A stretch of DNA of 15,584 nucleotides from Candidatus Latescibacterota bacterium (GTDB taxonomy: Bacteria > Latescibacterota > Latescibacteria > Latescibacterales > Latescibacteraceae): NCBI GenBank assembly GCA_016927495.1, contig JAFGMP010000236.1, forward strand, positions 1 to 15,584. The letters are read 5' to 3'. The notes under the pieces were generated by a model, which made no database searches, was not told where the DNA came from, and worked only from the letters and a program-made list of their open reading frames with translations. A program made the position numbers and the translations under genes. The first letter of the stretch is position 1; the number at the start of each line of letters is the position of its first letter. Shown here piece after piece: positions 1 to 14,216 of this stretch.

Positions 1-15
1 ATTTTGGATATTGTA

Positions 16-1998
16 TCAATAAGGCGCCCACGATGTAATATGTCCGATAAGCGGTGTGTACGGCGGCTGTCCTGCAGGAGTAGAAAGATCGGGATCGTAC
101 ATATAAACGCGAACAGGAGGATTGTATCCTGTTTTTTGCACCCACGCAAGTTCATCGGTCTGTATTCCCGAATTATCGAGATTCGCACACATTACAGCGC
201 CATCAAGATGAACTACAGAGCCGAATTTTGTCAGCGTTTTTCCCGACCAGTTCTCCACAAGATCATCACAGTTTGCCCATGGATCACCACTATTATTGGG
301 GTCATTGTATCCTGCCGCGGTTTTCGGGGATTCGGGATTATATCTGACTATACCGCTCCAGTCATATCTGTTGTTATCATCACGGTCAGCCCAGTTATAT
401 TCATCAACAGTAGGCGCACCATCAACAAGTGCCGCATTAATTCTTGTATTAACTGCGCTTCTGTTTTTGGAATTTGTCGACTGAGCATCGCTGAATATAC
501 CGCTTAAATGATATATTCTGTGTACAGTCATAATTGCGCAGCCTTTTTTCTCTATTGTGTTAAAATCTCCCAATGTATATATGGTCCTGCAACTTGAAAC
601 CATTAATTTGTTCTGAAGTTTTGCTGTGTTTTTTAGCCTAACGGGCACATCACAGTATATTAAACCGTTTGAAGGCCAGTCGTTTGTTGTTGCTTCCTTA
701 AATAAAATACCGTCTGTAGCGCCACCGGTTACAGACTCACTGACTATGATATTAGTATTACCTCCGGCGTTAACTGCACTAACAACGGTATATGCATTAT
801 TCAAAGCGGTTCTTGTAAAACAACTGACGACATAAACGGCATCGCCGGCGTTATATTCGGTTTCATGATTGCCTAAAATGGTAATTCTTTTCGTTGCACC
901 GTCAGACGCAACTACGGAATAATCGGCTCCGCCGGAAATCAGATCGGCAAAATCAATCTCCCAGGCTGTTATCCACCGCTGTTCATTCCAGTTCCAGAAT
1001 GTCACTTGACTGCACCATGGTTCTGTTGAATGTGTTGTATTATTGATGTGGAGTTGAGCTTCCTGGTCATAATACTCACCGGGGTTAAGGTTTTGAACGG
1101 GAGGAGGCGACTTATATGGCACTTTGTCACGTACTACACCACCCCAGAGAGCTTTCGCACCAACTGTTTTGTCAGTCCAGTTTGCATTGTATGAGTCGAA
1201 TGCCAGACCCTCTGAACCACGAGGACTGCCGGGTTCCATTTCAATCCAGATACCGGATCCTTCACTATTTTTCGTTATTTCACATGCACCACTTGTATCA
1301 GGTCGGCCCCAGGCGTCTCTGCTTCGTATCATATTTCCGGTTGCTGTTACGGAAGATGAATTTATTCGTAAGGTTGCACCGGTTGGCCTTATATACATAT
1401 GCCCGTTTGCATGTACTTTACCCCTTATTTCCTGCGAGGCTCCACGGGTGAATTCACCAAGGTCCCTTGAGGCAAAATAAGAAAACTGGAACATTGTCTC
1501 AATCTCACCCTGAGCCCTTGTACGCTTTCGAATTTTGTCATACCATCCCTCAGACTCAATGATAAAAGAGAAGTTTGAGGTATAGTATACTCTGAACTTA
1601 AAACCGTGACGTTTGTCGGTGTCCCACATGGGATCATAGCCTTTCGATGAATCCCATTCCCATACATAACTACCGTCACTATCGATATAATAATTCGCAA
1701 GAGATGTTGGCAGAAGATCTTCACCGGTTTCCGATTGTGCCATATCGAGCGTATGAGTTGTTTGAAGAAAACCTGTATTGATGAATTCACGATATGCAAC
1801 ACGAGCACCTATTTCAGCCATATTCCGAGCCTGCATATTTATTTCGTAGTTACGGGATAGTGCAGCGTTTGTCGACGTACTTGTTATCACCCCGACACCT
1901 ACAACTGTTAGAGTCATGAGGATTACAAGCACGAGAACAAGGGCAAATCCCCGTTCTGAATTGCTACATCGATTAATCATAGATCTAATACTAACCAT
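16..1998 (-). CDS. Large PilX-like type IV pilus minor pilin / pilus-associated protein (660 aa)
   Basis: The ATG at 1998 lies 13 nt downstream of the PilW-like stop. The N-terminus NSERGFALVLVLVILMTLTVVGVGV has the PilX_N-like hydrophobic helix that follows a short polar leader. The ~500-aa C-terminal region is rich in W, Y, N, D and G and was not recognised. Gene order fimT-pilV-pilW-pilX matches canonical minor-pilin operons. Confidence 0.6.
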   Translation of the reverse strand: MVSIRSMINRCSNSERGFALVLVLVILMTLTVVGVGVITSTSTNAALSRNYEINMQARNMAEIGARVAYREFINTGFLQTTHTLDMAQSETGEDLLPTSLANYYIDSDGSYVWEWDSSKGYDPMWDTDKRHGFKFRVYYTSNFSFIIESEGWYDKIRKRTRAQGEIETMFQFSYFASRDLGEFTRGASQEIRGKVHANGHMYIRPTGATLRINSSSVTATGNMIRSRDAWGRPDTSGACEITKNSEGSGIWIEMEPGSPRGSEGLAFDSYNANWTDKTVGAKALWGGVVRDKVPYKSPPPVQNLNPGEYYDQEAQLHINNTTHSTEPWCSQVTFWNWNEQRWITAWEIDFADLISGGADYSVVASDGATKRITILGNHETEYNAGDAVYVVSCFTRTALNNAYTVVSAVNAGGNTNIIVSESVTGGATDGILFKEATTNDWPSNGLIYCDVPVRLKNTAKLQNKLMVSSCRTIYTLGDFNTIEKKGCAIMTVHRIYHLSGIFSDAQSTNSKNRSAVNTRINAALVDGAPTVDEYNWADRDDNNRYDWSGIVRYNPESPKTAAGYNDPNNSGDPWANCDDLVENWSGKTLTKFGSVVHLDGAVMCANLDNSGIQTDELAWVQKTGYNPPVRVYMYDPDLSTPAGQPPYTPLIGHITSWAPY

Positions 1999-2011
1999 AT
2001 TCTCACACCTT

Positions 2012-2890
2012 TTAGATGATAACTATGTTCTGAGGAATTACCAGGCCTTTAATTTCGACACGTCTGTAACCATCACCATATACAGGATCAATATAATTCG
2101 GTATCGGTTCGGATGTTTTTGAACGCAATGTCATTTCAATTTCCCTTATATCATAAATCTCATCAGGTTCCGGCTCTGTAATCCATGAGCCATCTTTCAT
2201 ATTGAACCGAATCTGAAAGTCTTCAACATCCCCAAGAAGAATTTGCGGATCATATGCCTGATGTTTTAGCATTAAATTTATTCTGCCTTCATCGTCCGTA
2301 TCGACATAAAAAGTAAGATGAGTAACAACCTGTATCGAACTGCCTGTATTATAAACATGGTCAAGTTGATTGTCATCATTCCAGGGCAGCGATGCATCAT
2401 GCCACAGTGTGGTTGAGTTTTTATTTGTAACTATAAATATTTCCGTAAATGTGCCATCAGAGATTACACACAGATCTCCTGTTTCAATTTCATCCGTGGA
2501 ATTACATTTAATCTGATCACCTTCACTTGCCATATTCTGGGTTGTTGTCACCGTGACTGCTTTGAAACTACCCATGATTGTTAATGAATCAGGGCTATCA
2601 TCAACACCATCGACAGCTTCTATCACAGCCCATCCGCTTGTAGGTGGTACTCCATTACCTGCCAATCTCACATGGTCATAAAGGAAATTCATAGCCCACC
2701 GTAATTCCTGCTGCATTTCGGATTCCTGACGTTTAACACTAAAACGTGTAACCTGATCAGCCATGAACTGAAACATTAACACTGCGAGTATTGAACCTAT
2801 GGTCATAGCGACCAGAAGTTCCGCAATAGTCATACCCTTTTCATTGTTACGAAAACGAGGTCTATTTATACCAATCAATTTTTTTTGCAT
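2012..2890 (-). CDS. PilW-like type IV pilus minor pilin (prepilin-type N-terminal cleavage/methylation domain)
   Basis: Leader MQKKLIGINRPRFRNNEKG, then MTIAELLVAMTIGSILAVL (G-1, E+5), then QVTRFSVKRQESEMQQELRWAMNFLYDHVRLAG, which is typical of PilW. The ORF track starts at an in-frame GTG at 2902. I prefer the ATG at 2890, which has a GGGGAG about 11 nt upstream. Confidence 0.6.
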   Translation of the reverse strand: MQKKLIGINRPRFRNNEKGMTIAELLVAMTIGSILAVLMFQFMADQVTRFSVKRQESEMQQELRWAMNFLYDHVRLAGNGVPPTSGWAVIEAVDGVDDSPDSLTIMGSFKAVTVTTTQNMASEGDQIKCNSTDEIETGDLCVISDGTFTEIFIVTNKNSTTLWHDASLPWNDDNQLDHVYNTGSSIQVVTHLTFYVDTDDEGRINLMLKHQAYDPQILLGDVEDFQIRFNMKDGSWITEPEPDEIYDIREIEMTLRSKTSEPIPNYIDPVYGDGYRRVEIKGLVIPQNIVII

Positions 2891-2929
2891 TACGGCATTC
2901 ACTCCCCAAAATTTAACCGAATAATGAAG

Positions 2930-3340
2930 TTAGTTGCTCTGATCGATACATACCGATGTAAGCGTAACTGTCTCAAGATTTCCAGTTGTACTCTCCCATT
3001 GAACTTTGGATGTAATTAACTTAGACCTTGGTATGGGATTCAGGTCATCTATTGTCCAAAACTGGTAGAAAACCCCGTTTGAATCACCGGTCGCGTTTAC
3101 CGGGTTCAGAGGATTCTCATAAGAGTTTTCTGCAAGATTTGGGTTCTCGTAGCCATCCGTCAAAAGTTGTTCAATTTTATTTTGAGCAAGCAAGACAGCC
3201 TGTGTGTGACGCTGGCTGTGAAAATTCCTTTGTACAATTTCCGATATTATCGAACCGACAATTCCAATTCCCACAACAAGAATCACCGAGGCCATTATCA
3301 CTTCGATCAGAGTGAAACCTTTTTCAGAGTTGTATTTCAT
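2930..3340 (-). CDS. PilV-like type IV pilus minor pilin
   Basis: N-terminus MKYNSEKGFTLIEVIMASVILVVGIGIV is a class III prepilin signal (G|FTLIE). TQAVLLAQNKIEQL follows, as in PilV. The start overlaps the upstream gene's stop as ATGA (3337-3340). Confidence 0.65.
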   Translation of the reverse strand: MKYNSEKGFTLIEVIMASVILVVGIGIVGSIISEIVQRNFHSQRHTQAVLLAQNKIEQLLTDGYENPNLAENSYENPLNPVNATGDSNGVFYQFWTIDDLNPIPRSKLITSKVQWESTTGNLETVTLTSVCIDQSN

Positions 3341-3822
3341 AAGTTTCTCTCCCGTATCCTGCCGGTAAGATAGTTTAATTCAACTTTTGTCGAATCTATC
3401 GAACTGTTAGTAATTATTATAGTCCCAGTCATTTCACCTCCTGTTAAACAGGATTTTTCAAGTTGTCCGAATTCATTAAATATGACAAGCCAATCCTCAA
3501 AATTATTCTCACTAATGGAAATTCCTGATTCAAGACTGTAACCGGCACCCCTGATTTCATTTGCACCTTCAGGATCACGAATGATATAAAAGTTACCGCT
3601 TCCGCCCTCATCGAATTGAACACCGTACGGTTCCGCTTCATTTACAGCCTTCATTCTGGCAGTGTAAAGTGATGCGGTCACCGTTGCAGTACTTGTGCGA
3701 AGTTTATCCTTTTTGAATACAAGATTAAGTGATGGTACCGCCAAACCTGCCATAATACCAATAACAACCATGACAATCATTAATTCAACGAAAGAAAAAC
3801 CGGATTCATTTGGCTTCATCAT
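3337..3822 (-). CDS. FimT/FimU/GspH-like minor pilin (pseudopilin)
   Basis: N-terminus MMKPNESGFSFVELMIVMVVIGIMAGLAVPSL has the prepilin cleavage/methylation motif (G|FSFVE). The following region, LNLVFKKDKLRTSTATVTASLYTARMKAV, resembles the GspH/FimT family. It is the first gene of the pilin operon and has a GAGAG upstream. Confidence 0.65.
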   Translation of the reverse strand: MMKPNESGFSFVELMIVMVVIGIMAGLAVPSLNLVFKKDKLRTSTATVTASLYTARMKAVNEAEPYGVQFDEGGSGNFYIIRDPEGANEIRGAGYSLESGISISENNFEDWLVIFNEFGQLEKSCLTGGEMTGTIIITNSSIDSTKVELNYLTGRIRERNL

Positions 3823-4190
3823 AGCACTCTCTTTAATAACATATATAAATCAAGTCGGGTTAAGTTTTTCAACATCACCTATTGTTTCTTGTAGCAAAAC
3901 GATACAAAATTTTCATTTCGGGACACTTTGATCAATACTAATTTTTTTAAATTGTTAAACCTACGCTATATAGTATATTCTATTTTTTCCTTTTGTAAAT
4001 AGAAGTTTTCTGCTTAAGCTTTTCATTTGATACATTCATTTTTCCAATGTTTTATTTGATTTTTATGATGTATTTAACGCAAAAAACATGCCGTTTAAAA
4101 AAATAAAATTGCACGGAAACCAGGTATGTTGTATTTTTTGCCTTAATAAATCACAACAATGTATTAATTTCTCTGAAAAGAAAGAATGGT
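3823..4190. promoter_or_regulatory. AT-rich divergent intergenic region between the pilin operon and the pfkB kinase gene; candidate sigma70-like promoter for the kinase is TTGCAC(4109-4114)-17 nt-TATTTT(4132-4137)
   Basis: A 368-nt very AT-rich non-coding spacer lies between divergently oriented genes. The -35/-10-like hexamers with 17-nt spacing were read directly. No experimental support. Confidence 0.25.
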
Positions 4191-5102
4191 ATGATCGCAG
4201 CAATCGGTATATCGGTACTCGATACGATAATGGTGATGGACGGTTTTAAATCCGCTGAGGGATCGTATCACTGTGAGAAACTTATCATTGAAGGCGGCGG
4301 TATGGCTGCAACCGCCCTTTGTACGGCTTCAAAGCTTGGTTCGCAAACACGTCTGTTTTCAAGGATTGGAAACGATGTATTCGGCAAACGGCTGCTGGAA
4401 GAGCTGAGAGATTTCGGGGTTGACATTTCGGGGACAATAACGCTAAAAAACAGAAATACTACCGCTTCTGTTGTGTTTGTCGATTTAAATACCGGAGAAA
4501 AACAATTTTATTCGGAATGGGATAAATCCGCATACATAGATTCCTGCTCACTTAATGTCAATTTGCTCGAAGGTGTTAAAATCATGCTTGTGGACGGACA
4601 TTGGACAGAAGGAGCATATGAGGGTCTTGTATGGGCCCGCGCACAGGAAATTCCTGTAGTTGCCGATTTTAAAAGAAAGTATAATGGCATCGAAAAATTA
4701 TTTCCCTTCATCGATTATTTCATCATACCGATGTTTTTTGCCGAAGAAATAACCGGAGAAAAAAAAACGGATCGAATGCTTCATAAACTTACCGAGCTGC
4801 AGCCGGGCATCCCGGTTATAACTTGCGGAGTTCAGGGAGGAGCATATATCGTCGAAAATGATATCAAACGTTACAAGGCATTTCCTATAAAAGCAGTTGA
4901 TTCAACAGGAGCGGGTGACGCTTTCCATGGGGCATTTTGCCATTTCATTTCCCATGGTGTAGAACTGTCCCGCTGTCTGGAATTATCTTCTGCTGTTGGC
5001 GCACTCAACTGTCGTGCCCACGGTGGTAGATCTGCTCTTCCGTCACGAGAAGAACTAAAGGTTTTTCTTAAAAATCATAATGTGGATCCGGAATTTCCAT
5101 AA
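4191..5102 (+). CDS. pfkB/ribokinase-family carbohydrate kinase
   Basis: An N-terminal beta-strand plus GG motif (IGISVLDTIMV...EGGGMAATALCTASKLG) and a C-terminal anion-hole/catalytic motif DSTGAGDAFHGAF (DTxGAGD) are diagnostic of the ribokinase/pfkB superfamily. Length is 303 aa. Confidence 0.8.
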   Translation: MIAAIGISVLDTIMVMDGFKSAEGSYHCEKLIIEGGGMAATALCTASKLGSQTRLFSRIGNDVFGKRLLEELRDFGVDISGTITLKNRNTTASVVFVDLNTGEKQFYSEWDKSAYIDSCSLNVNLLEGVKIMLVDGHWTEGAYEGLVWARAQEIPVVADFKRKYNGIEKLFPFIDYFIIPMFFAEEITGEKKTDRMLHKLTELQPGIPVITCGVQGGAYIVENDIKRYKAFPIKAVDSTGAGDAFHGAFCHFISHGVELSRCLELSSAVGALNCRAHGGRSALPSREELKVFLKNHNVDPEFP

Positions 5103-5228
5103 GTTCCTAAAATTCAAAATGCTATTTCCAAATGATCTTTTCCGAACATGTACTGATTCTGAGTATTAAACAACCTCAAATATAAAAAGAGTATTTACAC
5201 AAGTTTTCAAAATTCATTATCTCACTTA

Positions 5229-5257
5229 TTGACTTTCTACAGGTTAATTCGTATCTT
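5229..5257 (+). promoter_or_regulatory. Candidate sigma70-type promoter of the small basic ORF: TTGACT(5229-5234)-17 nt-TATCTT(5252-5257)
   Basis: Hexamers with 17-nt spacing were read directly. They sit about 55 nt upstream of ATG 5311, and GGAGG lies at 5302-5306. Confidence 0.3.
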
Positions 5258-5310
5258 TGATAAAAGCTTATAAACAAATAAAAATGATTACAAGTAGTGT
5301 CGGAGGTTAT

Positions 5311-5436
5311 ATGGGTAACAGAAAATTGAGAAAAGCTGAAATACGGCAAAGGCGTCAACGACGCGAAAAACGTCAGAAACAGAAAAAAAATGAATTGATT
5401 ATGAAAGCACAGGAAAAAAAAGATAAAAAGGATTGA
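5311..5436 (+). CDS. Small (41 aa) extremely basic Arg/Lys-rich protein, MGNRKLRKAEIRQRRQRREKRQKQKKNELIMKAQEKKDKKD
   Basis: This ORF is not in the six-frame track because it is under 60 aa. GGAGG lies 4 nt upstream of the ATG, a candidate promoter is upstream, and a strong hairpin+T8 terminator lies 76 nt downstream. Composition is about 50% K/R. It may be a ribosome- or nucleic-acid-associated small protein, but it could also be non-coding. Confidence 0.4.
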   Translation: MGNRKLRKAEIRQRRQRREKRQKQKKNELIMKAQEKKDKKD

Positions 5437-5511
5437 AACTTTTTTCCTGTTCAGGCATATTAAATACAGGTCGACAAAAAATTGCGCTGTCGGCCGTAGA
5501 ACCTCCCTTTC

Positions 5512-5545
5512 GAAACCCCGGTTGTATTTGACCGGGGTTTTTTTT
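5512..5545. terminator. Rho-independent terminator hairpin (9-bp GC-rich stem AACCCCGGT/ACCGGGGTT, 8-nt loop) followed by T8 on the plus strand; A-run on the other side allows weaker bidirectional function for the convergent BMC operon
   Basis: Stem 5514-5522 pairs with 5531-5539, loop is tgtatttg, and the T-run is 5538-5545. The site lies between the convergent small ORF (plus) and the aldehyde dehydrogenase gene (minus, ends 5630). On the minus strand the stem is followed only by TTTC. Confidence 0.6.
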
Positions 5546-5629
5546 GCTCAATAAAAAATGCGCACCGTTCTTTTTCAAAAACACGTACGCATATTTATTA
5601 TTTGCTTCGATATTCTTTCTCAGTCAATC

Positions 5630-7114
5630 TCAGACAAACCGCAGACTCCCTGCTATCGCCAGACGTCTGATTTTACAGAAATTAATCGGTGATGTGACGC
5701 CCTCACCGGTAGGAGTTGCGATTGTGAAAGCCATATACGCTTCGCCATCATCAGGACCGTCACCCTGATTACTGTAGCCGTTTGCCACCACAATTGTTGT
5801 ATTCATTGCTTTGGCAAAAGTTGTAATACGATCCATGTCTTTCGAATGAATGAGCGCCGTATGTCGATACCCATGTTCTGCTTCCAGACAACACTGTAAA
5901 CCGTCATCGAAATCTTTAACCCTGACAATAGGAAGAAGCGGCATCATCTGTTCTTCTTTTACTAACAGATTATCCTTGTCCGTTTCACCGAAAAGGAGAC
6001 GTGTACCCTCGGGAATGTTTAACTTCACAAGATCGGCAAGATAACTGGTGCTTCTGCCCACCATCTCACGATTAAGTACATGACCGCCTTTTTCGTTTGA
6101 AATAAAAGCTTTTTTGGTCAACAGGTCCATATGAATACTTTCGATTTTTACAGCGCCGGCTTTTTCCATCGCCATCATAAACCTGTCAAAAACGGATTCT
6201 ACAACAAAGACCTCTTTTTCAGCGATACAGAGGAGATTATTATCAAACGAAGCGCCTCTGATAATATCCCGTGCGGCTTTTTCAATATTGGCTGTTTCAT
6301 CGACCAGAACCGGCGGATTTCCGGGACCTGCGGCTATCACCTTTTTATCGGTGGCCATAGCAGCTTTAACAACACCCGGTCCTCCGGTTATCGACAATAA
6401 CGCGACATCAGGATGGTTGAACATGCTATTCGCCGTCTCGATTGTCGGATTCTCCACACAGGTAATAAGGTTTTCCGGAAAACCTCCCGCAACTATAGCT
6501 TTATGGAATATCTGCAGAGCATAGGCGCTTATTTTTTTTGCTCCGGGGTGAGGATTGAAAATTACAGTGTTACCCCCGGCAAGCATAATGATCGCGTTGT
6601 TGACCAACGTGGGAACCGGATGCGTGGACGGAGTTATTGCTCCTATTATCCCGAATGGCGCAAATTCCTCGATCGTGACGCCGGTTTCTCCCGACCATGA
6701 CCGTGAAACAAGATTCTCGGTACCGGGTGAATTTTTTGCGCAGTTTCTGTGTTTTAAAATCTTGTCTCTGATGTTCCCCATGCCGGTTTCTTCGAAAGTC
6801 ATCTTGCTGAATTCTTCTGCATAATCCAAAGTGACCCTGCGCAGGATACCGATGAGACGTTCACGTTCTCTGACACCAAATTTATTAAATTCAAAAAATG
6901 CTCTTTTGGATGCTGCAATTGCATCTTCCATACGGTCGAATACACCATCTTTGCCGCGTAAACCGGCCGATGATGCAACTGGTCTCATGGATTGTGGCGA
7001 TAAAGATGGTGTTACTGCACCCGATCCGGCTTTGGGTAGCGCCGTTCCGGACGTTTTTGCCACCGATGCAACAACAGATTCAACTATGCTTCTGATTTGT
7101 TGTTCGTCAATCAT
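5630..7114 (-). CDS. CoA-acylating aldehyde dehydrogenase (EutE/PduP family) with N-terminal encapsulation peptide
   Basis: The ALDH fold starts at GVFDRMEDAIAASKRAF. The catalytic Cys lies in FDNNLLCIAEKE. A ~55-aa N-terminal extension (amphipathic helix IDEQQIRSIVESVVASV plus an S/P/A/G-rich linker) is typical of BMC-targeted AldDH. AAGAGG lies 8 nt upstream of the ATG. Confidence 0.9.
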   Translation of the reverse strand: MIDEQQIRSIVESVVASVAKTSGTALPKAGSGAVTPSLSPQSMRPVASSAGLRGKDGVFDRMEDAIAASKRAFFEFNKFGVRERERLIGILRRVTLDYAEEFSKMTFEETGMGNIRDKILKHRNCAKNSPGTENLVSRSWSGETGVTIEEFAPFGIIGAITPSTHPVPTLVNNAIIMLAGGNTVIFNPHPGAKKISAYALQIFHKAIVAGGFPENLITCVENPTIETANSMFNHPDVALLSITGGPGVVKAAMATDKKVIAAGPGNPPVLVDETANIEKAARDIIRGASFDNNLLCIAEKEVFVVESVFDRFMMAMEKAGAVKIESIHMDLLTKKAFISNEKGGHVLNREMVGRSTSYLADLVKLNIPEGTRLLFGETDKDNLLVKEEQMMPLLPIVRVKDFDDGLQCCLEAEHGYRHTALIHSKDMDRITTFAKAMNTTIVVANGYSNQGDGPDDGEAYMAFTIATPTGEGVTSPINFCKIRRLAIAGSLRFV

Positions 7115-7140
7115 AATTTAACCTCTTATCACATTCGTAA

Positions 7141-7413
7141 TTACACCATCTGTTCCATGTCTTCATGCGGGCTTGCAATAACCTGTGTGGCAACAACTTC
7201 TCCTACACGGGCTGCGGCTTCGGTTCCGGCCTCAACTGCCGCTTTTACTGCAGCGACATCACCCCTGACCATAACCGCAATATATCCGCTTCCCGTTTTT
7301 TTGTAGCCCTGAAGACTCACCGAAGCGGCTTTGAGCATTGCATCAGCGCCTTCCACTGCGGCTATGAAACCTCTTGTCTCTATAAATCCTAATGCTCTTC
7401 CTGTAACTGCCAT
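7141..7413 (-). CDS. BMC-H hexameric shell protein (Pfam00936, PduA/EutM-like)
   Basis: MAVTGRALGFIETRGFIAAVEGADAMLKAASVSL...GDVAAVKAAVEAG is a canonical single BMC domain. AGGAGG lies 5 nt upstream. Confidence 0.9.
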   Translation of the reverse strand: MAVTGRALGFIETRGFIAAVEGADAMLKAASVSLQGYKKTGSGYIAVMVRGDVAAVKAAVEAGTEAAARVGEVVATQVIASPHEDMEQMV

Positions 7414-7438
7414 TGTATCCTCCTGGTTTCATGACATT

Positions 7439-8218
7439 CTATTGATTGTTGAGTTCCTTCATGATTTTTTCCGTTATTTCCGTGACAATATCTTCGTACT
7501 CCGATTTTGTGCTTAGTTCACAGCTTTCAGTCCCCGTGCATGTACCGCAATTCATGCATGCGCTGCCGCCGATTTTTATACCGAACTGATCACGAATCTC
7601 TTCGAGTTTCTTTACATTTTGCGTGCTGATCTGTTTCATTCCGCCAAGCTGATGAGCTGCCAGAGATATTATGGCAAAATGTTCCACACTCTCCATCTTA
7701 TAATAAGCCTCCATTACGTCTTTACCCAAAGTCATTGCTCCATGATTAGCAAGAAGAATGGCGTCATGACATAGTACCAGATCTTTTATAGAATCGGATA
7801 ATTCCGTTGTGGATGGAGTCCCATATTGGGCCAGCGGAATAGAACCCAGAGAAATTATTATCTCAGGTAATGTTTTAAAATCCAACGGGATATTGGCTAC
7901 CGCATAACCCGTGCAAACCGGCGGATGGGCATGAACAACAGAGCCGATATCATCACGCTGACGATACGCCTCGATATGAATTTTACTTTCGGATGAAGGT
8001 TTCATATACCCGCTCCGAACATTACCGTCCATATCGATCTTCACAAGCATATCAGGTGACATAAAACCTTTCGATACACCGGTTGGCGTGGTTATTATAT
8101 TCGTATCATCGAGTTTCATGCTGATATTACCGTCATTCGAGGCAACCCAACCTTTTAACCAGACACGTCTGCCAACCTCACATATCTGTTCCCGTATTTC
8201 TTTTTCTCGATTATTCAT
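7439..8218 (-). CDS. Class II (AraD/FucA-type, metal-dependent) aldolase with C-terminal Cys cluster and C-terminal encapsulation peptide
   Basis: FucA-like motifs are present: NDGNIS, KPSSES (the catalytic Glu position), HAHPP and ANHG (metal His ligands). The C-terminal ~45 aa read GGSACMNCGTCTGTESCELSTKSEYEDIVTEITEKIMKELNNQ, a CxxCxxCx5C cluster followed by an amphipathic helix. Confidence 0.85.
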   Translation of the reverse strand: MNNREKEIREQICEVGRRVWLKGWVASNDGNISMKLDDTNIITTPTGVSKGFMSPDMLVKIDMDGNVRSGYMKPSSESKIHIEAYRQRDDIGSVVHAHPPVCTGYAVANIPLDFKTLPEIIISLGSIPLAQYGTPSTTELSDSIKDLVLCHDAILLANHGAMTLGKDVMEAYYKMESVEHFAIISLAAHQLGGMKQISTQNVKKLEEIRDQFGIKIGGSACMNCGTCTGTESCELSTKSEYEDIVTEITEKIMKELNNQ

Positions 8219-8291
8219 TGTATTTGTTTCTGGTTTATAGTGTATGATTAATTCTACAGTTTATTTCAACTATTCCTTATTATGAAACTAT

Positions 8292-9479
8292 TTACCGAGT
8301 ATCGCTAACTACTTTTACAGTCTCACGGGCAACAATAATTTCTTCATTCGTATCAAGGACAAGCGCTGCAATCTTCGATCCTTCAGCATCGATACGTTCG
8401 CTGTTAGCCTCATTCGCGCTTTTGTCAAGTTTGAATCCCAGAAATTCCAGTGAAGTGAGGATCTCCGACCGCAGAGCACTGTCTTTCTGACCGGTTCCTC
8501 CGGTAAAACAAACAGCATCTACACCGCCCATGAATAAAATATATGCACCCATATAGAACTTGATATCATAAATAAACTTGTCACGGGCAAGCTGCGCTTG
8601 TTTGCTCCCCTTTCTGATGGCTTCAATTACATCCCTCATATCTCCTGACGTTCCGGAAAGACCCTTGAGTCCACCGTTCGATCCCAGTTCTCTATACGCA
8701 TCTTCAAGACTTATACCTTTTTTCTTCATAATGTACGGAACAATAAACGAATCCATATCACCGACACGTTTGGATTGAATAACACCCGTCTGTGTGCTGA
8801 AACCCATAGATGTATCTATAGCAACTCCGTCTTTAAACGCACATACCGAGGATGATCCCCCGAGGTGACACGCAATAACTTTATGATTTTTCAGATCGAG
8901 TTTCAGAATACGAACAGTTTCTCCGGTAACAAATCTCAATGATGCGCCATGATAGCCGTATTTACGGACACCATATTTTTCAAACCACTCAACTGGAGTG
9001 CCATAAACCTGGGCATATTCCGGCCTGTTAATATGAAATCCCGGTTCGAATACACCCACCAGCGGTTTTTCAGGTAACAGATCTTTAAACATCCTTATCG
9101 CTTCAAGGTATGGAGGATTATGAGCCGGCGCGATGTCGCTGTATTCATCCATTGCCGCAATAACTTTTTTTGTCAACAGTACCGAACCGTTTTGCTCTCC
9201 TGCCTGCACGGTTTTAAATCCTACCGCATCGATTTCTGACAAATCGTTTATAATTTCCGATGTCAGAAATTCGAGCCCCCGCCTGACCGCTTCCTTCTGA
9301 TTAAGTACCGGCTTTTCTTCATCGATGATAATGTCTCCCGAACCACGGTAATAGGTGCCATGCGCATTATCCGATCCTACACGTTCGATATGGACATGTG
9401 CGATAATGCTTTCAGTCTCCATATCGATGAACTGGAATTTGAATGAAGTCGATCCTATATTACAAACTATAACTTTCAT
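8292..9479 (-). CDS. ackA: Acetate/propionate kinase (AckA family)
   Basis: N-terminus MKVIVCNIGSTSFKFQF (the ASKHA fold beta1 / phosphate-1 motif). Length is 395 aa. Internal motifs HLGGSSSVCAF and FTGGTG are typical of acetate kinases. Confidence 0.9.
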   Translation of the reverse strand: MKVIVCNIGSTSFKFQFIDMETESIIAHVHIERVGSDNAHGTYYRGSGDIIIDEEKPVLNQKEAVRRGLEFLTSEIINDLSEIDAVGFKTVQAGEQNGSVLLTKKVIAAMDEYSDIAPAHNPPYLEAIRMFKDLLPEKPLVGVFEPGFHINRPEYAQVYGTPVEWFEKYGVRKYGYHGASLRFVTGETVRILKLDLKNHKVIACHLGGSSSVCAFKDGVAIDTSMGFSTQTGVIQSKRVGDMDSFIVPYIMKKKGISLEDAYRELGSNGGLKGLSGTSGDMRDVIEAIRKGSKQAQLARDKFIYDIKFYMGAYILFMGGVDAVCFTGGTGQKDSALRSEILTSLEFLGFKLDKSANEANSERIDAEGSKIAALVLDTNEEIIVARETVKVVSDTR

Positions 9480-9553
9480 CGCAGTTCAAAGTTTTAAGTT
9501 CAAGAATCAAAGTTCAGGGTTCGATGTACAAAACTAAAGTCAAACCATTTATA

Positions 9554-9820
9554 TCACATTGCCACATCATCAATAATAGCCAGAATATTAGCGTCGGAAC
9601 CGGTCATATCAGGGTGAAATGCCATTGCCGATTCCGGACCACCTTCATACAGGACAATCTGGCCTTCTCCGCATCCTATATAATCAAAAGTGATTATCAG
9701 GTTACCTGGTTTTTTTATATCACGGATATCTATTTCTTCCATTACCCTGAGCTTTTTGCCCGCAAGCGCAGGAAGCGTTTTGTTCAATACCAAATTACCG
9801 CGTACTTTGCCGGTTTCCAT
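9554..9820 (-). CDS. BMC-P pentameric vertex protein (EutN/PduN/CcmL family), paralog 3
   Basis: METGKVRGNLVLNKTLPALAGKKLRVM...IGCGEGQIVLYEGG matches the BMC-P fold pattern. Length is 88 aa. Confidence 0.8.
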   Translation of the reverse strand: METGKVRGNLVLNKTLPALAGKKLRVMEEIDIRDIKKPGNLIITFDYIGCGEGQIVLYEGGPESAMAFHPDMTGSDANILAIIDDVAM

Positions 9821-9886
9821 CTATTATTAACCATTCACGTTTCATTCTTATTGAAATCATCGGTACTCAAAAAATAAAGTACTTAA

Positions 9887-10621
9887 CTATATGCCGGTGA
9901 AACCTGAAATTATTGCTTCGGGATTCGATATCGATCCAAGCACAATCACATTAGCGCCTATATCGATCCTTGCGGCACGGGCATCATACGTGTCTCTGCA
10001 GTGGACGGCACGAACAGCGCTGTTTCTGTTTGCATGAATCGGAGCCTCCATTCCCGTGTTTTCAAGACAGACTCCGAAATGAGCGCCGCCTGAAACTACC
10101 ATATCCGCAAGCTTTTTTACATTTGCTTCATACGACCCGCCGGTAATTTCTTTTATCGTCAAATGTTTTGCTGCAAGAATATTCTTCAAAATTGAACCAT
10201 CACCCTTAAAATCCGGAGCAATAACGAGCGCAACAGAAATGGTACCCTGTATTGAAGAAACATTCCCAGATTTATTACCTGCTGCACCATCAATACGGTT
10301 GATAGTTATTTTCTTTTCTTTGGCAAAATCCAGCGCCAATGGCGTTATAACAGCCTTTTTTGTTATGGTGACGGTTTGCCCTTTTACTGCTTCGAGATCT
10401 TTCTGAGTAATAACCTGTTTCCCCGACATATCAGCGTTACCCGCTGCAGGTGCTTCAACAGGCAGTGTCGGACGAATCGATACCTGAGCCGGAACAGGTG
10501 ATTGTTGTGCCGGAGCTTGACTGCCGCTTGTTTCGGCAGACGAACTTACCGGAATACCCCGCTGGTTAAGAACTCTTTTTACTTCTGTAATAATCGCTTC
10601 GACAAGTTCATCGTGATTCAT
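9887..10621 (-). CDS. Encapsulation-peptide-tagged RpiB/LacAB-family sugar-phosphate isomerase-like protein (EP + linker + small unassigned module + RpiB-like domain)
   Basis: The N-terminus MNHDELVEAIITEVKRVL is an amphipathic helix, followed by a ~45-aa S/A/P/Q-rich linker. The middle module reads VITQKDLEAVKGQTVTITKKAVITPLALDFAKEKKITI. The C-terminal ~115 aa align to the RpiB core: GVCLENTGMEAPIHANRNSAVRAVHCRDTYDARAARIDIGANVIVLG versus RpiB [47 protein letters not shown]. Glu sits at the catalytic Cys/Glu position. The N-terminal GSDHAG motif has diverged to APDFKG. Confidence 0.6.
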   Translation of the reverse strand: MNHDELVEAIITEVKRVLNQRGIPVSSSAETSGSQAPAQQSPVPAQVSIRPTLPVEAPAAGNADMSGKQVITQKDLEAVKGQTVTITKKAVITPLALDFAKEKKITINRIDGAAGNKSGNVSSIQGTISVALVIAPDFKGDGSILKNILAAKHLTIKEITGGSYEANVKKLADMVVSGGAHFGVCLENTGMEAPIHANRNSAVRAVHCRDTYDARAARIDIGANVIVLGSISNPEAIISGFTGI

Positions 10622-10645
10622 GGTAAACCTACTTGATTATGTAAA

Positions 10646-10903
10646 TTAACGCTCAACTATATCATCTATAATTCCGCATAACCATGCTCTTTGAGGAACA
10701 ATGGGATCATTATGCATTTCCTGCGATCCTATACCATCCCAATTGAGAATAACTCTGTCACCTTTACCTGATGCGGTAAAATCAACCACAACCTGCGGCC
10801 TGCCCTGGGGCTGTCCCTTTGCATCAAGTACCTGAACAATCATTAGCTTTTTCCCATTAAGGCAGGGATGTTTGATTGTAGAAGTAACACTTCCAAGTAC
10901 CAT
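10646..10903 (-). CDS. BMC-P pentameric vertex protein (EutN/PduN/CcmL family), paralog 2
   Basis: MVLGSVTSTIKHPCLNGKKLMIVQVLD...ASGKGDRVILNWDG matches the BMC-P pattern. The ORF track begins at an in-frame TTG at 10921 (MRLREG-). The ATG at 10903 gives the canonical M-x-x-G-x-V-x-S-T N-terminus. The true start is ambiguous. Confidence 0.75.
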   Translation of the reverse strand: MVLGSVTSTIKHPCLNGKKLMIVQVLDAKGQPQGRPQVVVDFTASGKGDRVILNWDGIGSQEMHNDPIVPQRAWLCGIIDDIVER

Positions 10904-11034
10904 TCCCTCTCTCAACCGCAAACCTCATACTAAAAAATTAAACCATAAAATTCGTTACCTGTTTCATTTCGAAAACAACTTGTAATGTATCTCTTCTGTA
11001 ATAACTTGTATTCATCCTGTCTGCAATCAAATAT

Positions 11035-11583
11035 TTATACGAGATGCGGTATCAGTTCCGGATTCACCGACGGAATAACCACCGAAGCAATGAGCACTCC
11101 TCTGTCTTTAACTCCTTCAAGCGCAGCATCCATTGCCGACTGGACATTCTGGACAGAACCGGTAACGATCACATATGATTTTCCGGCAAGTCCCTTACCG
11201 AGCCTGAGTTCGATTATTTCCACATCGGAGGTTTTCACCATCGTATCGGCGCCCTCGATTGTTGCCGTCATCGTCATCGTTTCAAAAACACCGATTGAAG
11301 CGCCGATATTAACAATATCAGGACTGTAAAACGCCGAAAGAACTTTGTCATCGATACGAGGCAAAATGAGCGAGTCCAGAAAATTGAAATCGGCAATTCC
11401 CTTTGCAAGATCAATCGCTTCCCGGACAGCTCCGACATCTCCTGTAAATAATATCTGATAACGCCCGGGACAGTTTGGAGCGGAAAGCAAAATATCAATC
11501 GCCGTATTTTTGGAAATAAGATCGGCGGCCTGTATACCTTTTCCGACACTTATATATTCGAGAAAACCAATACATTTACTCAT
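11035..11583 (-). CDS. BMC-T tandem-domain shell protein, PduT-like with conserved pore cysteine (putative [4Fe-4S] site)
   Basis: Two BMC domains (IGFLEYISVGKGIQAADLISKNTAIDIL and IGVFETMTMTATIEGADTMVKTSDVEIIEL) sit in 182 aa. LLSAPNCPGRYQILFTGDVGAVREAI aligns with Salmonella PduT [27 protein letters not shown], including Cys38. The start overlaps the PduS stop as ATGA. Confidence 0.85.
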   Translation of the reverse strand: MSKCIGFLEYISVGKGIQAADLISKNTAIDILLSAPNCPGRYQILFTGDVGAVREAIDLAKGIADFNFLDSLILPRIDDKVLSAFYSPDIVNIGASIGVFETMTMTATIEGADTMVKTSDVEIIELRLGKGLAGKSYVIVTGSVQNVQSAMDAALEGVKDRGVLIASVVIPSVNPELIPHLV

Positions 11584-12956
11584 GAACCGGCACCCCTGAT
11601 TACAATATATTCATTCGTAACTTCTTCTACATGGCCATGTATTGATGCATGTACTCGCGCCCCCATTCCATTTTCAGGAATTTCACCGATCAGATCACCG
11701 GTTTTTACACTCTCCCCCTGTTTTACCACCGGTTTTGCCGGAGCACCTATATGCTGAAGAAGCGGGATACGCACCTTTCCGGGTATGAACGAACCAAGTG
11801 GTTCGAATTCTGTGTGTCCGAGATACCGTTCGAGGCCAAGTTTACGGGCATATGTTAAAGCCGGAAGTTTTCGATAATTAAACATTGCACCATCATACTG
11901 AGGCATCTTTGAAAAATCATACTTCAATCCCGACCGTTTTATAGCATCGCGAACCATAGCATATACTTTGTTGGGAGCCAGGCCGAAAATGCATGCGTAT
12001 TGTTCACAAACACCACACTGGCAGCACAAAATTGATTCGAATACCATCTGTTTTGTGAATTCATCGAGGTCATGCGCTTCAATTTTCCTTATAATCTCAT
12101 CGACAAACCATGAGTATGACATCATTTTTGCCGGTGAAATGGCATGGCCTATAGCGTTTCTCGGGCAAAGTATAGTACATTCCTGACAGGTGCAGCACAT
12201 TTTTGCCCGCTGTTTCGTAATACGGACAGGTTCTTTTTTTAATCGAACCATCGTGTGGTCTTTCGGCAATACTATTACACCCCCAAATCGCTTATCGATA
12301 ACATCGTCCGTATCACCGATCGGCCCCATTATAGGTCCGCCCAAAATGATCTCGTAATCAGTTACAGTTACTCCGCCCGCAAATGCTATAAGGTCTTTTA
12401 CAGGCGTTCCTATCGGAACCTCAACGGTAACCGGACGGGCTACTTCCCCACCGATGGTAACATTTCGTGAAGTAACGACCTTACCGTCAAGCGCATCGGA
12501 AATCTGCTTGAATGTAGCCACATTGCTAACCGTCACACCAATCATAAAAGGCAAACCGCCCTGTGGCACCGTCTTTCCGGTCACATCACGGATCAGGACA
12601 AGCTCATCGCCTGCGGGATAAGAATTTTCGAGAATACCGATTTCGAATTCCGGTTTACCTGATATTACCTGAGAAACAGCATCGATGGCAGCGGTATTTT
12701 TATTTTTGATACCGATGATTCCCTTTCGGGCGCCAACCTGTTCCATCGCCGCTTCCATACCGCGTATGAAACTGCCGGGATTTTTTTCCATGAGATGTTT
12801 ATCGGCTTCGAGAATAGGTTCACATTCGGCGCCGTTAGCAATAACGGTGTCGACAGCATTTCCCAATTTAACATGAGTGGGAAATCCCGCACCGCCAGCC
12901 CCTACTATTCCGGCATCACGAACAATTGAAACAATATCGACGGCAGTCCGGCTCAC
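11580..12956 (-). CDS. PduS-like (RnfC/NuoF-like) NAD(H)- and FMN-binding iron-sulfur oxidoreductase
   Basis: N-terminus MSRTAVDIVSIVRDAGIVGAGGAGFPTHVKL closely matches PduS (GVVGAGGAGFPAHVKL). Two ferredoxin-like Cys clusters are present: CCTCQECTILCP and CCQCGVCEQYAC. The gene starts at GTG and overlaps the upstream BMC-P stop as GTGA. Confidence 0.85.
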   Translation of the reverse strand: MSRTAVDIVSIVRDAGIVGAGGAGFPTHVKLGNAVDTVIANGAECEPILEADKHLMEKNPGSFIRGMEAAMEQVGARKGIIGIKNKNTAAIDAVSQVISGKPEFEIGILENSYPAGDELVLIRDVTGKTVPQGGLPFMIGVTVSNVATFKQISDALDGKVVTSRNVTIGGEVARPVTVEVPIGTPVKDLIAFAGGVTVTDYEIILGGPIMGPIGDTDDVIDKRFGGVIVLPKDHTMVRLKKEPVRITKQRAKMCCTCQECTILCPRNAIGHAISPAKMMSYSWFVDEIIRKIEAHDLDEFTKQMVFESILCCQCGVCEQYACIFGLAPNKVYAMVRDAIKRSGLKYDFSKMPQYDGAMFNYRKLPALTYARKLGLERYLGHTEFEPLGSFIPGKVRIPLLQHIGAPAKPVVKQGESVKTGDLIGEIPENGMGARVHASIHGHVEEVTNEYIVIRGAGS

Positions 12957-13273
12957 TCTTTCTCACCTTTCCGATACACAAAATTGGTGTCAACCGACAC
13001 TGAATCGACAATCCCGATTATCAGACCATCCGTAGGTATACTCGCCGTTGTATCTGTCATACGGGCGGAAGATCCCTGTACGACAAGCACCAATTCACCC
13101 CGTCCGGCGCCAATCGGATCGTTTACTATCAGTGTGGTTCCGGTCGGCAGAATTTTACTGCCTTTAGGATCATTTGTAATATTCTGAACCTCGATAAGTA
13201 GAAACTTCTGCCCGATCAGTCGGTCAATCTTCACTGACGACACTATTTCACCGATAACTTTACCGACTACCAC
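12953..13273 (-). CDS. BMC-P pentameric vertex protein (EutN/PduN/CcmL family), paralog 1
   Basis: VVGKVIGEIVSS...GSSARM...DGLIIGIVDSVSVDTNFVYRK aligns with CcmL/EutN, including the C-terminal DTVSRDNYLLYSK-like segment. GTG start, with GAGGT 8 nt upstream. Confidence 0.85.
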   Translation of the reverse strand: MVVGKVIGEIVSSVKIDRLIGQKFLLIEVQNITNDPKGSKILPTGTTLIVNDPIGAGRGELVLVVQGSSARMTDTTASIPTDGLIIGIVDSVSVDTNFVYRKGEKE

Positions 13274-13430
13274 AAGTCAACCTCATTTTTCATTTTGTAT
13301 ACTTGTTGTAAGTAAATTTTTTTACATCAGACAAATACATTGTCCAAAACTAATAACCATGGTAAATCAAATATCTTCGATTCTTATTCTTTAAACACAG
13401 ATTCATCCTTGAATCATGTGCTTAAATCGG

Positions 13431-13793
13431 TTACACTCCGGGGCTTTTCTTCTGATCACCCGCAGGTGAAGCTTTTGTCGTTTTCGGTTTGGGAGCATTT
13501 GCCTTTTCTGCCGGTTTTTCTGCCTCCACGATGCCGATAAAAGCTTCCATTTCCTTATGAGGGCTCGCTATAACCTGAGCAGCAACGACCTTGCCAATAG
13601 CCGCGGCAGAACCTGCGCCTGCATCGACAGCAGCTTTTACTGCCGCCACATCTCCGGTCAGAATGATCATAACAAGTCCACTGCCTGCACGCATCTGAGT
13701 CAGAAGGGAAACATTGGCCGCTTTCAGAGCCGAATCGGCAGCCTCCACCGCGGCAACAAATCCCTGTGTCTCAATGAAACCCAAAGCTTGCAT
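13431..13793 (-). CDS. BMC-H shell protein with ~35-aa Lys/Pro/Ala-rich C-terminal extension
   Basis: The BMC domain is MQALGFIETQGFVAAVEAADSALKAANVSL...GDVAAVKAAVDAG. The tail reads EAEKPAEKANAPKPKTTKASPAGDQKKSPGV. AGGAG lies 6 nt upstream. Confidence 0.85.
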   Translation of the reverse strand: MQALGFIETQGFVAAVEAADSALKAANVSLLTQMRAGSGLVMIILTGDVAAVKAAVDAGAGSAAAIGKVVAAQVIASPHKEMEAFIGIVEAEKPAEKANAPKPKTTKASPAGDQKKSPGV

Positions 13794-13908
13794 GTGTATC
13801 TCCTATGTAATAAGTATCATAATTCCTGAATCATAAAAAGTTTTACCCGAATTTTATTCTTATATTTCACAATCCAGTCTTAATAGCGTTCAGCCAATTC
13901 AGATGCTT

Positions 13909-14175
13909 TTATTTGAAAAGTCCATCCAGTTCTTCATGAGGACGCGGAATAATGTGCGATGAAATGAACTCTCCTACATTTTTCGCCACTTCAGTGCCGG
14001 ATTCCACGGCTGCTTTGACCGAACCTACGTCGCCGGTGATAACTGTGGTTACAAAACCACCACCGATGCCAACCTGTTTGAGCAGTTCAACGCTGGCGCT
14101 CTTCAACATCGCATCGGTTGCAATTGCGAGTCCTGTGAATCCTCTTGTTTCAAGAAGTCCTATTGCTTTTCTCAT
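13909..14175 (-). CDS. BMC-H hexameric shell protein
   Basis: MRKAIGLLETRGFTGLAIATDAMLKSASVELL...GDVGSVKAAVESG is a canonical BMC domain. GGAGG lies 10 nt upstream. Confidence 0.9.
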   Translation of the reverse strand: MRKAIGLLETRGFTGLAIATDAMLKSASVELLKQVGIGGGFVTTVITGDVGSVKAAVESGTEVAKNVGEFISSHIIPRPHEELDGLFK

Positions 14176-14216
14176 TGTAGTGAAACCTCCATGTGTTGTG
14201 TGGTTACAGTATTAAA

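Follow-up and report, generated by a model that had tools for sequence, protein, structure and literature searches.

The class II aldolase of a metabolosome operon in a Candidatus Latescibacterota bacterium carries, on its C-terminal tail, a conserved three-cysteine motif followed by a predicted encapsulation peptide (EP). The gene lies on the reverse strand of a 15,584-nucleotide stretch (contig JAFGMP010000236.1 of assembly GCA_016927495.1, positions 1 to 15,584), which is called the window below. The EP is known, and so is this type of bacterial microcompartment (BMC) locus. What appears to be new is the cysteine motif that is conserved in the aldolase tail. The observations are best accounted for by a tail of two modules, a putative metal site anchored to the catalytic domain and then the known EP, a reading that we hold with about even confidence.

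The aldolase open reading frame (ORF) starts with ATG and encodes 259 residues, with a C-terminus that reads GGSACMNCGTCTGTESCELSTKSEYEDIVTEITEKIMKELNNQ. Residues 217-259 correspond to window positions 7442-7570, and the stop codon lies at 7439-7441. An earlier reading of this DNA, made from the sequence only, described a CxxCxxCx5C cluster in this tail, and the translation matches that description exactly (C221-M-N-C224-G-T-C227-T-G-T-E-S-C233, with spacings of x2, x2 and x5). Conservation of the cluster in orthologs was another matter: the first three cysteines are kept, while the fourth is often replaced by His, shifted or missing. Among 83 close orthologs with complete tails (65-94% identity), C-x2-C-G-x-C is present in 82. 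At the fourth position, these 82 have a Cys at +6 as in the window (46 sequences), a His at +6 (14), a Cys at +4 (10), a Cys at +5 (2), combinations of these (4) or none (6), which leaves a candidate fourth ligand in 76. The swap from Cys to His at +6 (TGY to CAY) takes two base changes. In these alignments, the fourth position behaves like a ligand site. Firmicutes homologs with about 50% identity (Neomoorella, Peptococcaceae, Limnochordia and others) keep the three-cysteine core, usually with no fourth Cys nearby. Codons vary across lineages (TGC or TGT for Cys; GGA, GGC, GGT or GGG for Gly) and the amino acids remain unchanged. Judged from the alignments, the conserved unit is three cysteines, C-x2-C-G-x-C, and the fourth one (C233) is not conserved.

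Of 180 more distant sequences compared next (150 representatives of 50%-identity clusters and 30 taken from the first search), 157 could be used. An extension with a terminal amphipathic helix was found in 83 of them, and 38 of these contain CxxCxxC, 32 with the Gly and 6 without. A Cys within the first nine extension residues is more widespread (66 of 83). Cys makes up 6.2% of the linker, 1.07% of the catalytic core and 0.6% of the helix, an enrichment of about six-fold over the core. In contrast, 40 of the 47 short-tailed homologs have no Cys in that region, and the aldolases of non-BMC loci end in '...GRHPGYKKY'. Short-tailed homologs from loci without shell genes have neither the helix nor the motif, so the expectation that ordinary non-BMC relatives would lack it was right. 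Within the locus itself (14 proteins, 3160 residues, 1.4% Cys), CxxCxxC is limited to the aldolase tail and the two ferredoxin motifs of PduS. The linkers of BMC aldolases have been described as lacking conservation of composition or sequence, and cysteine is never mentioned in the text of that study (PMC4594438). Its Table 2 nonetheless lists 5.5% Cys in aldolase linkers, the highest value among the linkers given there. No description of the motif was found in the full-text literature searched, the coverage of which was partial, and an earlier mention is possible. A conserved three-cysteine motif on a BMC aldolase tail appears to be undescribed so far.

The position of the motif is fixed relative to the enzyme rather than to the helix. 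It begins at extension position 4 in 31 of the 38 diverse motif-bearing homologs, whereas anywhere from 12 to 59 residues lie between the third Cys and the helix. The motif therefore belongs to the catalytic tail as an appendage, not to the shell-binding helix. The reference point is F212-G-I-K215, the counterpart of Y209-G-L-R212 in E. coli FucA (alignment A2, for which the FucA sequence was verified against 1FUA). FucA ends 3 residues past this motif, and C221 lies six residues beyond the FucA C-terminus. The window aldolase goes on for 44 residues, which carry the cysteine motif and the EP. The C-terminal tail of FucA is mobile and closes over the neighboring active site. FucA mutants of Y209 and R212 are held in the PDB (1DZV, 1DZX), and both residues belong to the last nine of FucA.

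The distal part of the tail corresponds to the predicted form of the published EP. The AlphaFold2 model has a helix at residues 238-257, with a predicted local distance difference test (pLDDT) score of about 90. For its best 14-residue stretch, VTEITEKIMKELNN, the hydrophobic moment is 0.61; shuffled sequences give 0.25, and only 0.3% of them reach 0.61. The helix can be aligned with those at the ends of BMC aldolases of the PVM, ACI and Firmicutes types, and its h-x-x-h-h-x-x-h pattern is also found at the N-termini of the aldehyde dehydrogenase (AldDH), PduL and RpiB-like protein of the same operon. As in the EPs defined by Kinney et al. and Aussignargues et al., a terminal predicted amphipathic helix of 15-20 residues is separated from the enzyme by a linker (217-237), and the host gene sits with shell genes. 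These findings agree with the suggestion of the sequence-only reading that the helix resembles an EP. The accompanying remark that C-terminal EPs are rare does not apply to this family, as 21 of 23 BMC-associated class II aldolases carry one (Aussignargues et al. 2015, PMC4594438). Such EPs are known for the PVM, PVM-like, GRM5, ACI and SPU5 types (PMC4594438; Sutter et al. 2021, PMC8217296). The window aldolase shares with them the enzyme family, the terminus, an amphipathic helix of about 17-20 residues after a linker and a locus with shell genes. It differs in its short linker of 21 residues (G217-T237), compared to the 23-81 reported (PMC4594438). The literature searched contained no experiment on targeting by an aldolase EP.

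The domain in front of the tail is that of a complete FucA-like aldolase, as had been proposed. Pfam Aldolase_II (PF00596) matches residues 10-184 (E=4.5e-45, 154 bits against a cut-off of 22.2). E77, H96, H98 and H159 align with the FucA metal ligands E73, H92, H94 and H155; in alignments A1 and A2 (114 and 22 sequences), E77, H96 and H159 are invariant and H98 is nearly so. The AlphaFold2 monomer has a mean pLDDT of 92. Foldseek matches it to structures of FucA, DrdA and YgbL with template modelling (TM) scores of 0.88-0.91, normalized to the target, and root-mean-square deviations of 1.8-2.0 Å, and FucA reaches a TM score of 0.91. The fold, the catalytic metal ligands and a Y/F-G-[ILV]-[KR] motif are conserved between FucA and the window aldolase, but Y113 of FucA is not. 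No solved structure covering the tail was found among the PDB and Foldseek matches. Neighboring genes, namely a PfkB kinase here and fucose isomerase, RhaA or FGGY kinases in related loci, suggest a ketose-1-phosphate substrate. Two trivial origins of the tail were considered and rejected. An annotation artefact or read-through does not fit a tail that is in frame, ends in TAA and is conserved in hundreds of sequences, and 25 nucleotides after the aldolase stop begins the next gene, which has AGGAGG as its ribosome-binding site. A precursor of the SCIFF or ranthipeptide kind does not fit a tail that is fused to an enzyme in a locus without a radical-SAM maturase.

From its composition and conservation, the motif probably binds a metal of some kind. 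An Fe-S cluster in particular is a more tentative proposal, which falls somewhat short of an even chance, and is weakly favored over zinc. Sequence alone does not decide between Fe-S and Zn. The ferredoxin-type core with a Gly after the second Cys (C221-x2-C224-G225-x-C227) is invariant in alignment A3. When a profile of the motif was compared to all PDB sequences, the top matches were both cluster motifs of the Clostridium acidurici 2[4Fe-4S] ferredoxin (E=0.17). The heptapeptide C-[hydrophobic]-x-C-G-x-C is almost the same in both groups: the clostridial ferredoxins (1FCA, 1FDN) read CISCGAC and CIDCGAC at these sites, and the aldolases read CMNCGTC, CIDCGAC or CVDCGAC. The spacing C-x2-C-x5-C also occurs in the [4Fe-4S] sites of WhiB and MutY. 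C224-x2-C227-x5-C233 equals the last three ligands of WhiB-like proteins, MutY and EndoIII, and the WhiB4 cluster is an oxygen-labile sensor. In contrast to the aldolase, where the first Cys precedes by x2, their first ligand lies 6 or 14-22 residues upstream; there is no homology, and the Cys at x5 is not conserved in the aldolase. Among the small subunits of anaerobic radical enzymes, HPAD-gamma has a [4Fe-4S] site of three Cys and one His, and those of BSS have clusters with a structural role. The Fe-S site of PduT has three Cys with the fourth site open, and PduK has an uncharacterized C-terminal tetracysteine extension that may ligate Fe-S (PMC6325248). The PduK extension and the pore clusters of PduT and GrpU are short cysteine motifs on BMC proteins for which Fe-S is proposed or shown. 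However, these are shell proteins, and the aldolase motif is located on a cargo enzyme beside the active-site tail.

The motif also tends to occur in loci of a particular kind. PduS/MNdh adjoins a BMC-T with a pore cysteine in each of the six motif-bearing lineages whose locus could be read, and none of these has an alcohol dehydrogenase (ADH). These are Latescibacterota (the window, L001, L003 and L004), Neomoorella glycerini (L012), the Firmicutes lineage of aldolase P0091 (L097, L098), Limnochordia (L099), the lineage of aldolase P0120 (L104) and Peptococcaceae CEB3 (L105). Among the BMC aldolase types without the motif, the MNdh/BMC-T module is present in one of five (L084) and absent from the PVM-type locus L014, about 50 ACI-type loci, the Lachnospiraceae type (L006-L009) and the P0114 locus. 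The association of motif and module (6/6 versus 1/5; Fisher p=0.015, confounded by shared ancestry) is suggestive only. Three locus contexts were left out as too short, P0242 on a 3.6-kb contig and P0124 and P0133 on less than 2 kb. The search of genome contigs with the single aldolase protein returned 11 loci. The metagenome search with alignment A1 returned mostly ACI-type Acidobacteria-like loci, and L016 and L046 were the only new motif-bearing ones. One further locus of the P0091 aldolase (L096) stops after BMC-P and is followed by unrelated genes. ORF matching there gave no PduS, BMC-T or acetate kinase and only a weak AldDH-like match, and the full set is present in L097 and L098; L096 may have been rearranged, have degenerated or be misassembled. 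Upstream, each of the three loci has a fragment of a PFL-like gene.

In the same region, the other BMC aldolase subfamilies show conserved cysteine signatures of their own. In ACI-type loci (L017-L095, gene order aldolase-H-P-P-P), the tail block reads APAPIC-x(8-25)-CQVVQAP...RLVP...EIRLTYxELTALIEDAV with two invariant Cys. The block is well conserved, and therefore the ACI 'linker' is likewise not unconserved. In the Lachnospiraceae type, 110 of 119 tails contain GG-x-PPC...GVTPLVRP...C[GS]C, and CxxCxxC occurs in none. The PVM-type tail has (C-x2-)C-D-L-C-G-N. From these sequences, a cysteine-based function of the post-catalytic tail seems to be general to encapsulated class II aldolases, with the ferredoxin-like form as one variant. 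The Lachnospiraceae-type loci (L006-L009, e.g., L008 at 6341-8766 and 9965-10924; aldolases P0132 and P0271-P0389) contain an APH/MtnK-like kinase, an IF-2B/MtnA-like isomerase and DeoR beside AldDH, BMC-H, PduL and BMC-P, and no PduS or BMC-T. They look like a 5-deoxyribose- or methylthioribose-type salvage feeding a microcompartment. Two unusual proteins were encountered in the same searches. In P0093 (355 residues, from a Vicinamibacterales metagenome-assembled genome), the last 70 or so residues of the aldolase domain are duplicated, KAHDGMLLANHGALT...GIKA standing twice before the tail, which may be an assembly artefact or real. In P0245 (584-587 residues, L010), an MtnB-like aldolase domain is fused to an IF-2B/MtnA-like isomerase, unrelated to BMCs.

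Put together, the preferred reading is the following. The aldolase would be the aldehyde-generating signature enzyme of the Latescibacterota 'SPU-like/PVM-like' metabolosome, and its 43-residue tail would consist of two modules, each anchored differently. The first, module 1 (C221-C233), is a putative metal-binding motif with three invariant Cys and a variable Cys/His as candidate fourth ligand; its distance to the catalytic domain is constant, and it starts six residues beyond the point that corresponds to the FucA C-terminus. Module 2 (238-257) is the EP, which would recruit the tetrameric enzyme to the cargo core or the shell. Module 1 would most likely ligate an Fe-S cluster, we infer, possibly completed by a ligand from outside or from a neighboring subunit. 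Such a cluster would serve to order the catalytic tail or to gate it, and would pin down where the flexible linker begins; electron transport would not be its task. Electron transfer is less likely than a structural or gating role because the aldolase is not redox-active, the MNdh-BMC-T chain is continuous and the motif is not in register with the helix.

Several observations weigh against this reading, in particular against a bound Fe-S cluster. The profile search of the PDB gave no significant match, the ferredoxin included, and a mini-rubredoxin and a LIM zinc finger (CFNCGKC) match nearly as well. Pfam gave no significant Fer4 match on the aldolase tail (best Fer4_2, E=0.52, 10.9 bits against a cut-off of 24.5); on seven other homolog tails searched at E<=10, six had no Fe-S match and one matched NADH_4Fe-4S at E=0.092. 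The canonical ferredoxin 'xxxCP', the second, remote motif and the ferredoxin fold are all absent from the tail. The fourth ligand is lacking in 6 of the 82 orthologs and in most Firmicutes homologs, and therefore a classical Cys4 site cannot be general. The resemblance to a ferredoxin-like [4Fe-4S] site or a Zn knuckle, noted in the sequence-only reading, stands for the spacing of the three cysteines and fails for a significant family match and a conserved fourth Cys. The AlphaFold2 monomer lends the motif no structural support, as pLDDT is below 50 for residues 222-224 and 228-236. The aldolase reaction needs no redox cofactor. The other subfamilies hold different Cys patterns at the same place; some hosts of the ACI and PVM lineages are presumably aerobes, and the shared function of the cysteines may not need an oxygen-labile cluster. 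As for the genomic association, the Firmicutes motif loci share synteny, and their aldolases are those most closely related to the Latescibacterota enzymes. This kinship means few evolutionary events, effectively two related locus types. L084 combines MNdh and BMC-T with a single-Cys tail lacking the motif, and in L101 an aldolase with motif and helix belongs to a sugar locus of the rhamnose type, without a shell gene less than 10 kb away.

Three other functions, in decreasing order of likelihood, are a zinc site, reactive thiols and a redox relay. A structural zinc site, Zn(Cys)3-4, would form a knuckle that stiffens the start of the linker like the zinc lobe of medium-chain dehydrogenase/reductase (MDR) ADHs. 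In horse liver ADH, this lobe has the ligands C97-x2-C100-x2-C103-x7-C111, which bind a non-catalytic metal. The aldolase pattern C-x2-C-x2-C-x5-C comes close, as the first three Cys fit and a fourth follows later. 'CxxCG' is also the knuckle of rubredoxins and zinc ribbons, in line with the mini-rubredoxin and LIM matches above; an alternation of Cys and His at the fourth position is common in zinc sites, and the enzyme already handles Zn. However, the Gly of the ADH lobe is placed elsewhere and its fourth ligand is strict, while the fourth aldolase Cys stands at x5 and is often absent, and no homology between the two is expected. Clostridial ferredoxin is the best fit to the heptapeptide, in which a Gly follows the second Cys and a small residue precedes the third. 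If the ACI and PVM hosts are aerobic, an oxygen-stable site would not be expected to give way to 2-Cys patterns in them, nor would a zinc site be expected to track the Fe-S-dependent MNdh/BMC-T module. On balance, zinc is unlikely. Reactive thiols would explain why the feature occurs on BMC-associated aldolases only. They could form redox disulfides within or between tetramers that condense the cargo, or C221 could act as a 'cysteine switch' on the catalytic Zn, leaving the enzyme latent until the EP is engaged during encapsulation. The Cys at or near C221 is indeed the most widely shared one, including the ACI, Lachnospiraceae and L084 types without CxxCxxC, and it lies just past the point where FucA ends, whose tail closes over the neighboring active site. 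Nevertheless, such a function leaves the invariance of three Cys and a Gly in ferredoxin spacing unexplained, the His that replaces the fourth Cys forms no disulfide, the cytoplasm of a strict anaerobe is reducing and no structural model places C221 near Zn (AlphaFold2 confidence there is below 50). Reactive thiols are improbable.

Electron exchange between an Fe-S cluster in the tail and PduS/MNdh or the pore cluster of BMC-T would account for the co-occurrence of the motif with both proteins in all six readable lineages, and the EP would bring the tail near the shell. A contact of this kind with PduS and PduT had been raised from the sequence and is unsupported. The electron path in the MNdh-BMC-T model is already continuous, with flavin mononucleotide (FMN) and three clusters in line 7-9 Å apart (PMC11626177). 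The aldolase reaction is not a redox reaction, the motif keeps its register to the catalytic domain over helix distances of 12-59 residues, and in L084 MNdh and BMC-T occur together with an aldolase whose tail has one Cys only. Such a relay is very improbable. Chance or neutral cysteines in a low-complexity linker are scarcely credible. The length and the remaining sequence of the linker are variable, and the absence of conservation stated in PMC4594438 is what would be expected of such a linker. In contrast, the motif is kept in 82 of 83 orthologs through synonymous codon changes, in a fixed register and with a six-fold Cys enrichment over the core, and Table 2 of the same study points the same way.

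A metal site that orders the catalytic tail could be taken one step further, to a labile sensor that gates it. This would be either an Fe-S cluster sensitive to O2 or iron, or a Zn cysteine switch released by engagement of the EP, and it would interlock activity, encapsulation and redox competence. The toxic aldehyde would then be made only inside a compartment with working NAD+ recycling from MNdh to BMC-T, and the cysteine signatures of the other subfamilies would be variants of the same interlock. We regard this extension as a long shot.

The operon that encodes the aldolase comprises 13 genes (Table 1). Their order is PduL, two BMC-H, BMC-P, a PduS-like flavo-Fe-S protein, a tandem-domain BMC-T, BMC-P, an RpiB-like protein, BMC-P, acetate kinase, the class II aldolase (8218-7439), BMC-H and an acylating AldDH. 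The shell genes are three BMC-H, one BMC-T and three BMC-P. No isomerase and no regulator are found among the operon genes. The same order is found in L001, a 1.67-Mb Latescibacterota contig, where DUF3047 and NUDIX genes border the operon upstream and PfkB, pseudopilin genes and pheS downstream. The window operon is considered complete because this syntenic locus shows its boundaries. Axen et al. (2014, PMC4207490) reported an 'SPU-like' BMC locus in the candidate phylum Latescibacteria, and the window operon is this locus. AldDH, PduL, PduS, the RpiB-like protein, class II aldolase and acetate kinase are common to both. The published description is at the level of the locus and does not mention the aldolase tail (PMC4207490). 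With the boundaries taken from L001, the Pfam scan found no ADH family among the operon proteins. For some metabolosomes without ADH, NAD+ recycling has been proposed to proceed by electron export from MNdh (PduS) to a BMC-T cluster (PMC11626177). The window locus belongs to this group. It has a four-domain PduS that overlaps a BMC-T with C38-PGRY, the latter corresponding to the CP(G/S)K/R-type pore Fe-S ligand motif defined for PduT/BMC-T(SE) (PMC6325248, PMC11626177), and an AldDH in the absence of an ADH.

Table 1. Features of the aldolase and its surroundings in the window.
Feature	Position	Strand	Basis or detail
13-gene metabolosome operon	14945-5630	-	Pfam and ORFs; Latescibacterota metagenome-assembled genome
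PduL-type phosphotransacylase, operon gene 1	14217-14945	-	Pfam PTAC; N-terminal amphipathic helix DILNRIVREVFERI
BMC-H	13909-14175	-	Pfam BMC
BMC-H	13431-13793	-	Pfam BMC
BMC-P (three genes)	12953-13273, 10646-10921, 9554-9820	-	Pfam EutN_CcmL
PduS/MNdh homolog	11580-12956	-	Pfam PF01512 (FMN/NADH), SLBB, Fer4_17, RnfC_N; CxxCxxC Fe-S motifs at residues 254 and 311
PduT-type BMC-T, two BMC domains	11035-11583	-	Pfam; pore Fe-S ligand motif C38-P-G-R-Y
RpiB-like protein	9887-10621	-	Partial Pfam LacAB_rpiB match; N-terminal amphipathic helix and long linker
Acetate kinase	8292-9479	-	Pfam
Class II (FucA-like) aldolase, 259 residues, signature enzyme	7439-8218	-	ORF, Pfam PF00596, Foldseek
Aldolase catalytic domain, residues 1-216	7571-8218	-	AlphaFold2 pLDDT >95; metal ligands E77, H96, H98, H159
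F212-G-I-K215, counterpart of FucA Y209-G-L-R212	7574-7585	-	Alignment A2
Cysteine motif C221-C233	7520-7558	-	Spacing x2, x2, x5
Spacer E234-L-S-T237 between motif and helix	7508-7519	-	Alignment
C-terminal amphipathic helix, residues 238-257, KSEYEDIVTEITEKIMKELN	7448-7507	-	Predicted EP
BMC-H directly downstream of the aldolase	7141-7413	-	Pfam BMC
Acylating AldDH	5630-7114	-	Pfam Aldedh; N-terminal amphipathic helix QQIRSIVESVVASV
PfkB-family sugar kinase, convergent with the operon	4191-5102	+	Pfam

Further details of the locus were recorded. Four-base start/stop overlaps between PduS and BMC-T (11580-11583) and between BMC-P and PduS (12953-12956) suggest translational coupling of the MNdh/BMC-T module. 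The RpiB-like protein matches LacAB_rpiB only in the middle of the profile (residues 162-230), and its N-terminal helix, ELVEAIITEVKRVL, leads into a linker of about 60 residues rich in Pro, Ala and Ser. In the SPU study, BMC RPIs of such a type had no catalytic Cys and were nearly inactive. The BMC-H at 13431-13793 ends in about 35 residues rich in Lys, Pro and Ala, EAEKPAEKANAPKPKTTKASPAGDQKKSPGV, a C-terminal tail that the other two BMC-H do not have. The PfkB gene adjoins the BMC operon in L001 as well (12911-13825), and in L101 another PfkB gene (10857-11783) directly follows the motif-bearing aldolase in a RhaA/epimerase/Dak/FGGY sugar locus. PfkB may be a candidate for making the ketose-1-phosphate substrate of the aldolase. 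A cluster of prepilin-type (N_methyl) pseudopilin genes with a 660-residue PilX_N protein adjoins the BMC locus (16-3822, reverse strand), and this neighborhood is also kept in L001 (14144-17141).

The linkers of BMC cargo proteins are handled as unconserved spacers in the literature, and presumably in BMC engineering too. The aldolase linker of widespread sugar-degrading metabolosomes carries a conserved cysteine signature specific to each subfamily, which contradicts this picture. In the branch formed by Latescibacterota and Firmicutes, the signature is ferredoxin-spaced, located on the catalytic tail and travels with an Fe-S module for NAD+ recycling. If the motif binds nothing, the EP half of the tail is textbook knowledge and the finding is ordinary; it may also be a simple structural metal site. 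If a cluster is bound, it would be the first of its kind, as we know of no other metal cofactor site beyond this one on a BMC aldolase. Heterologous expression may then need anaerobic, Fe-S-competent hosts, and the question of whether cutting 'just the EP' alters catalysis would have to be seen in this light. Above all, a bound cluster would offer a handle on how the activity of a cargo enzyme is coordinated with its encapsulation and with the redox state.

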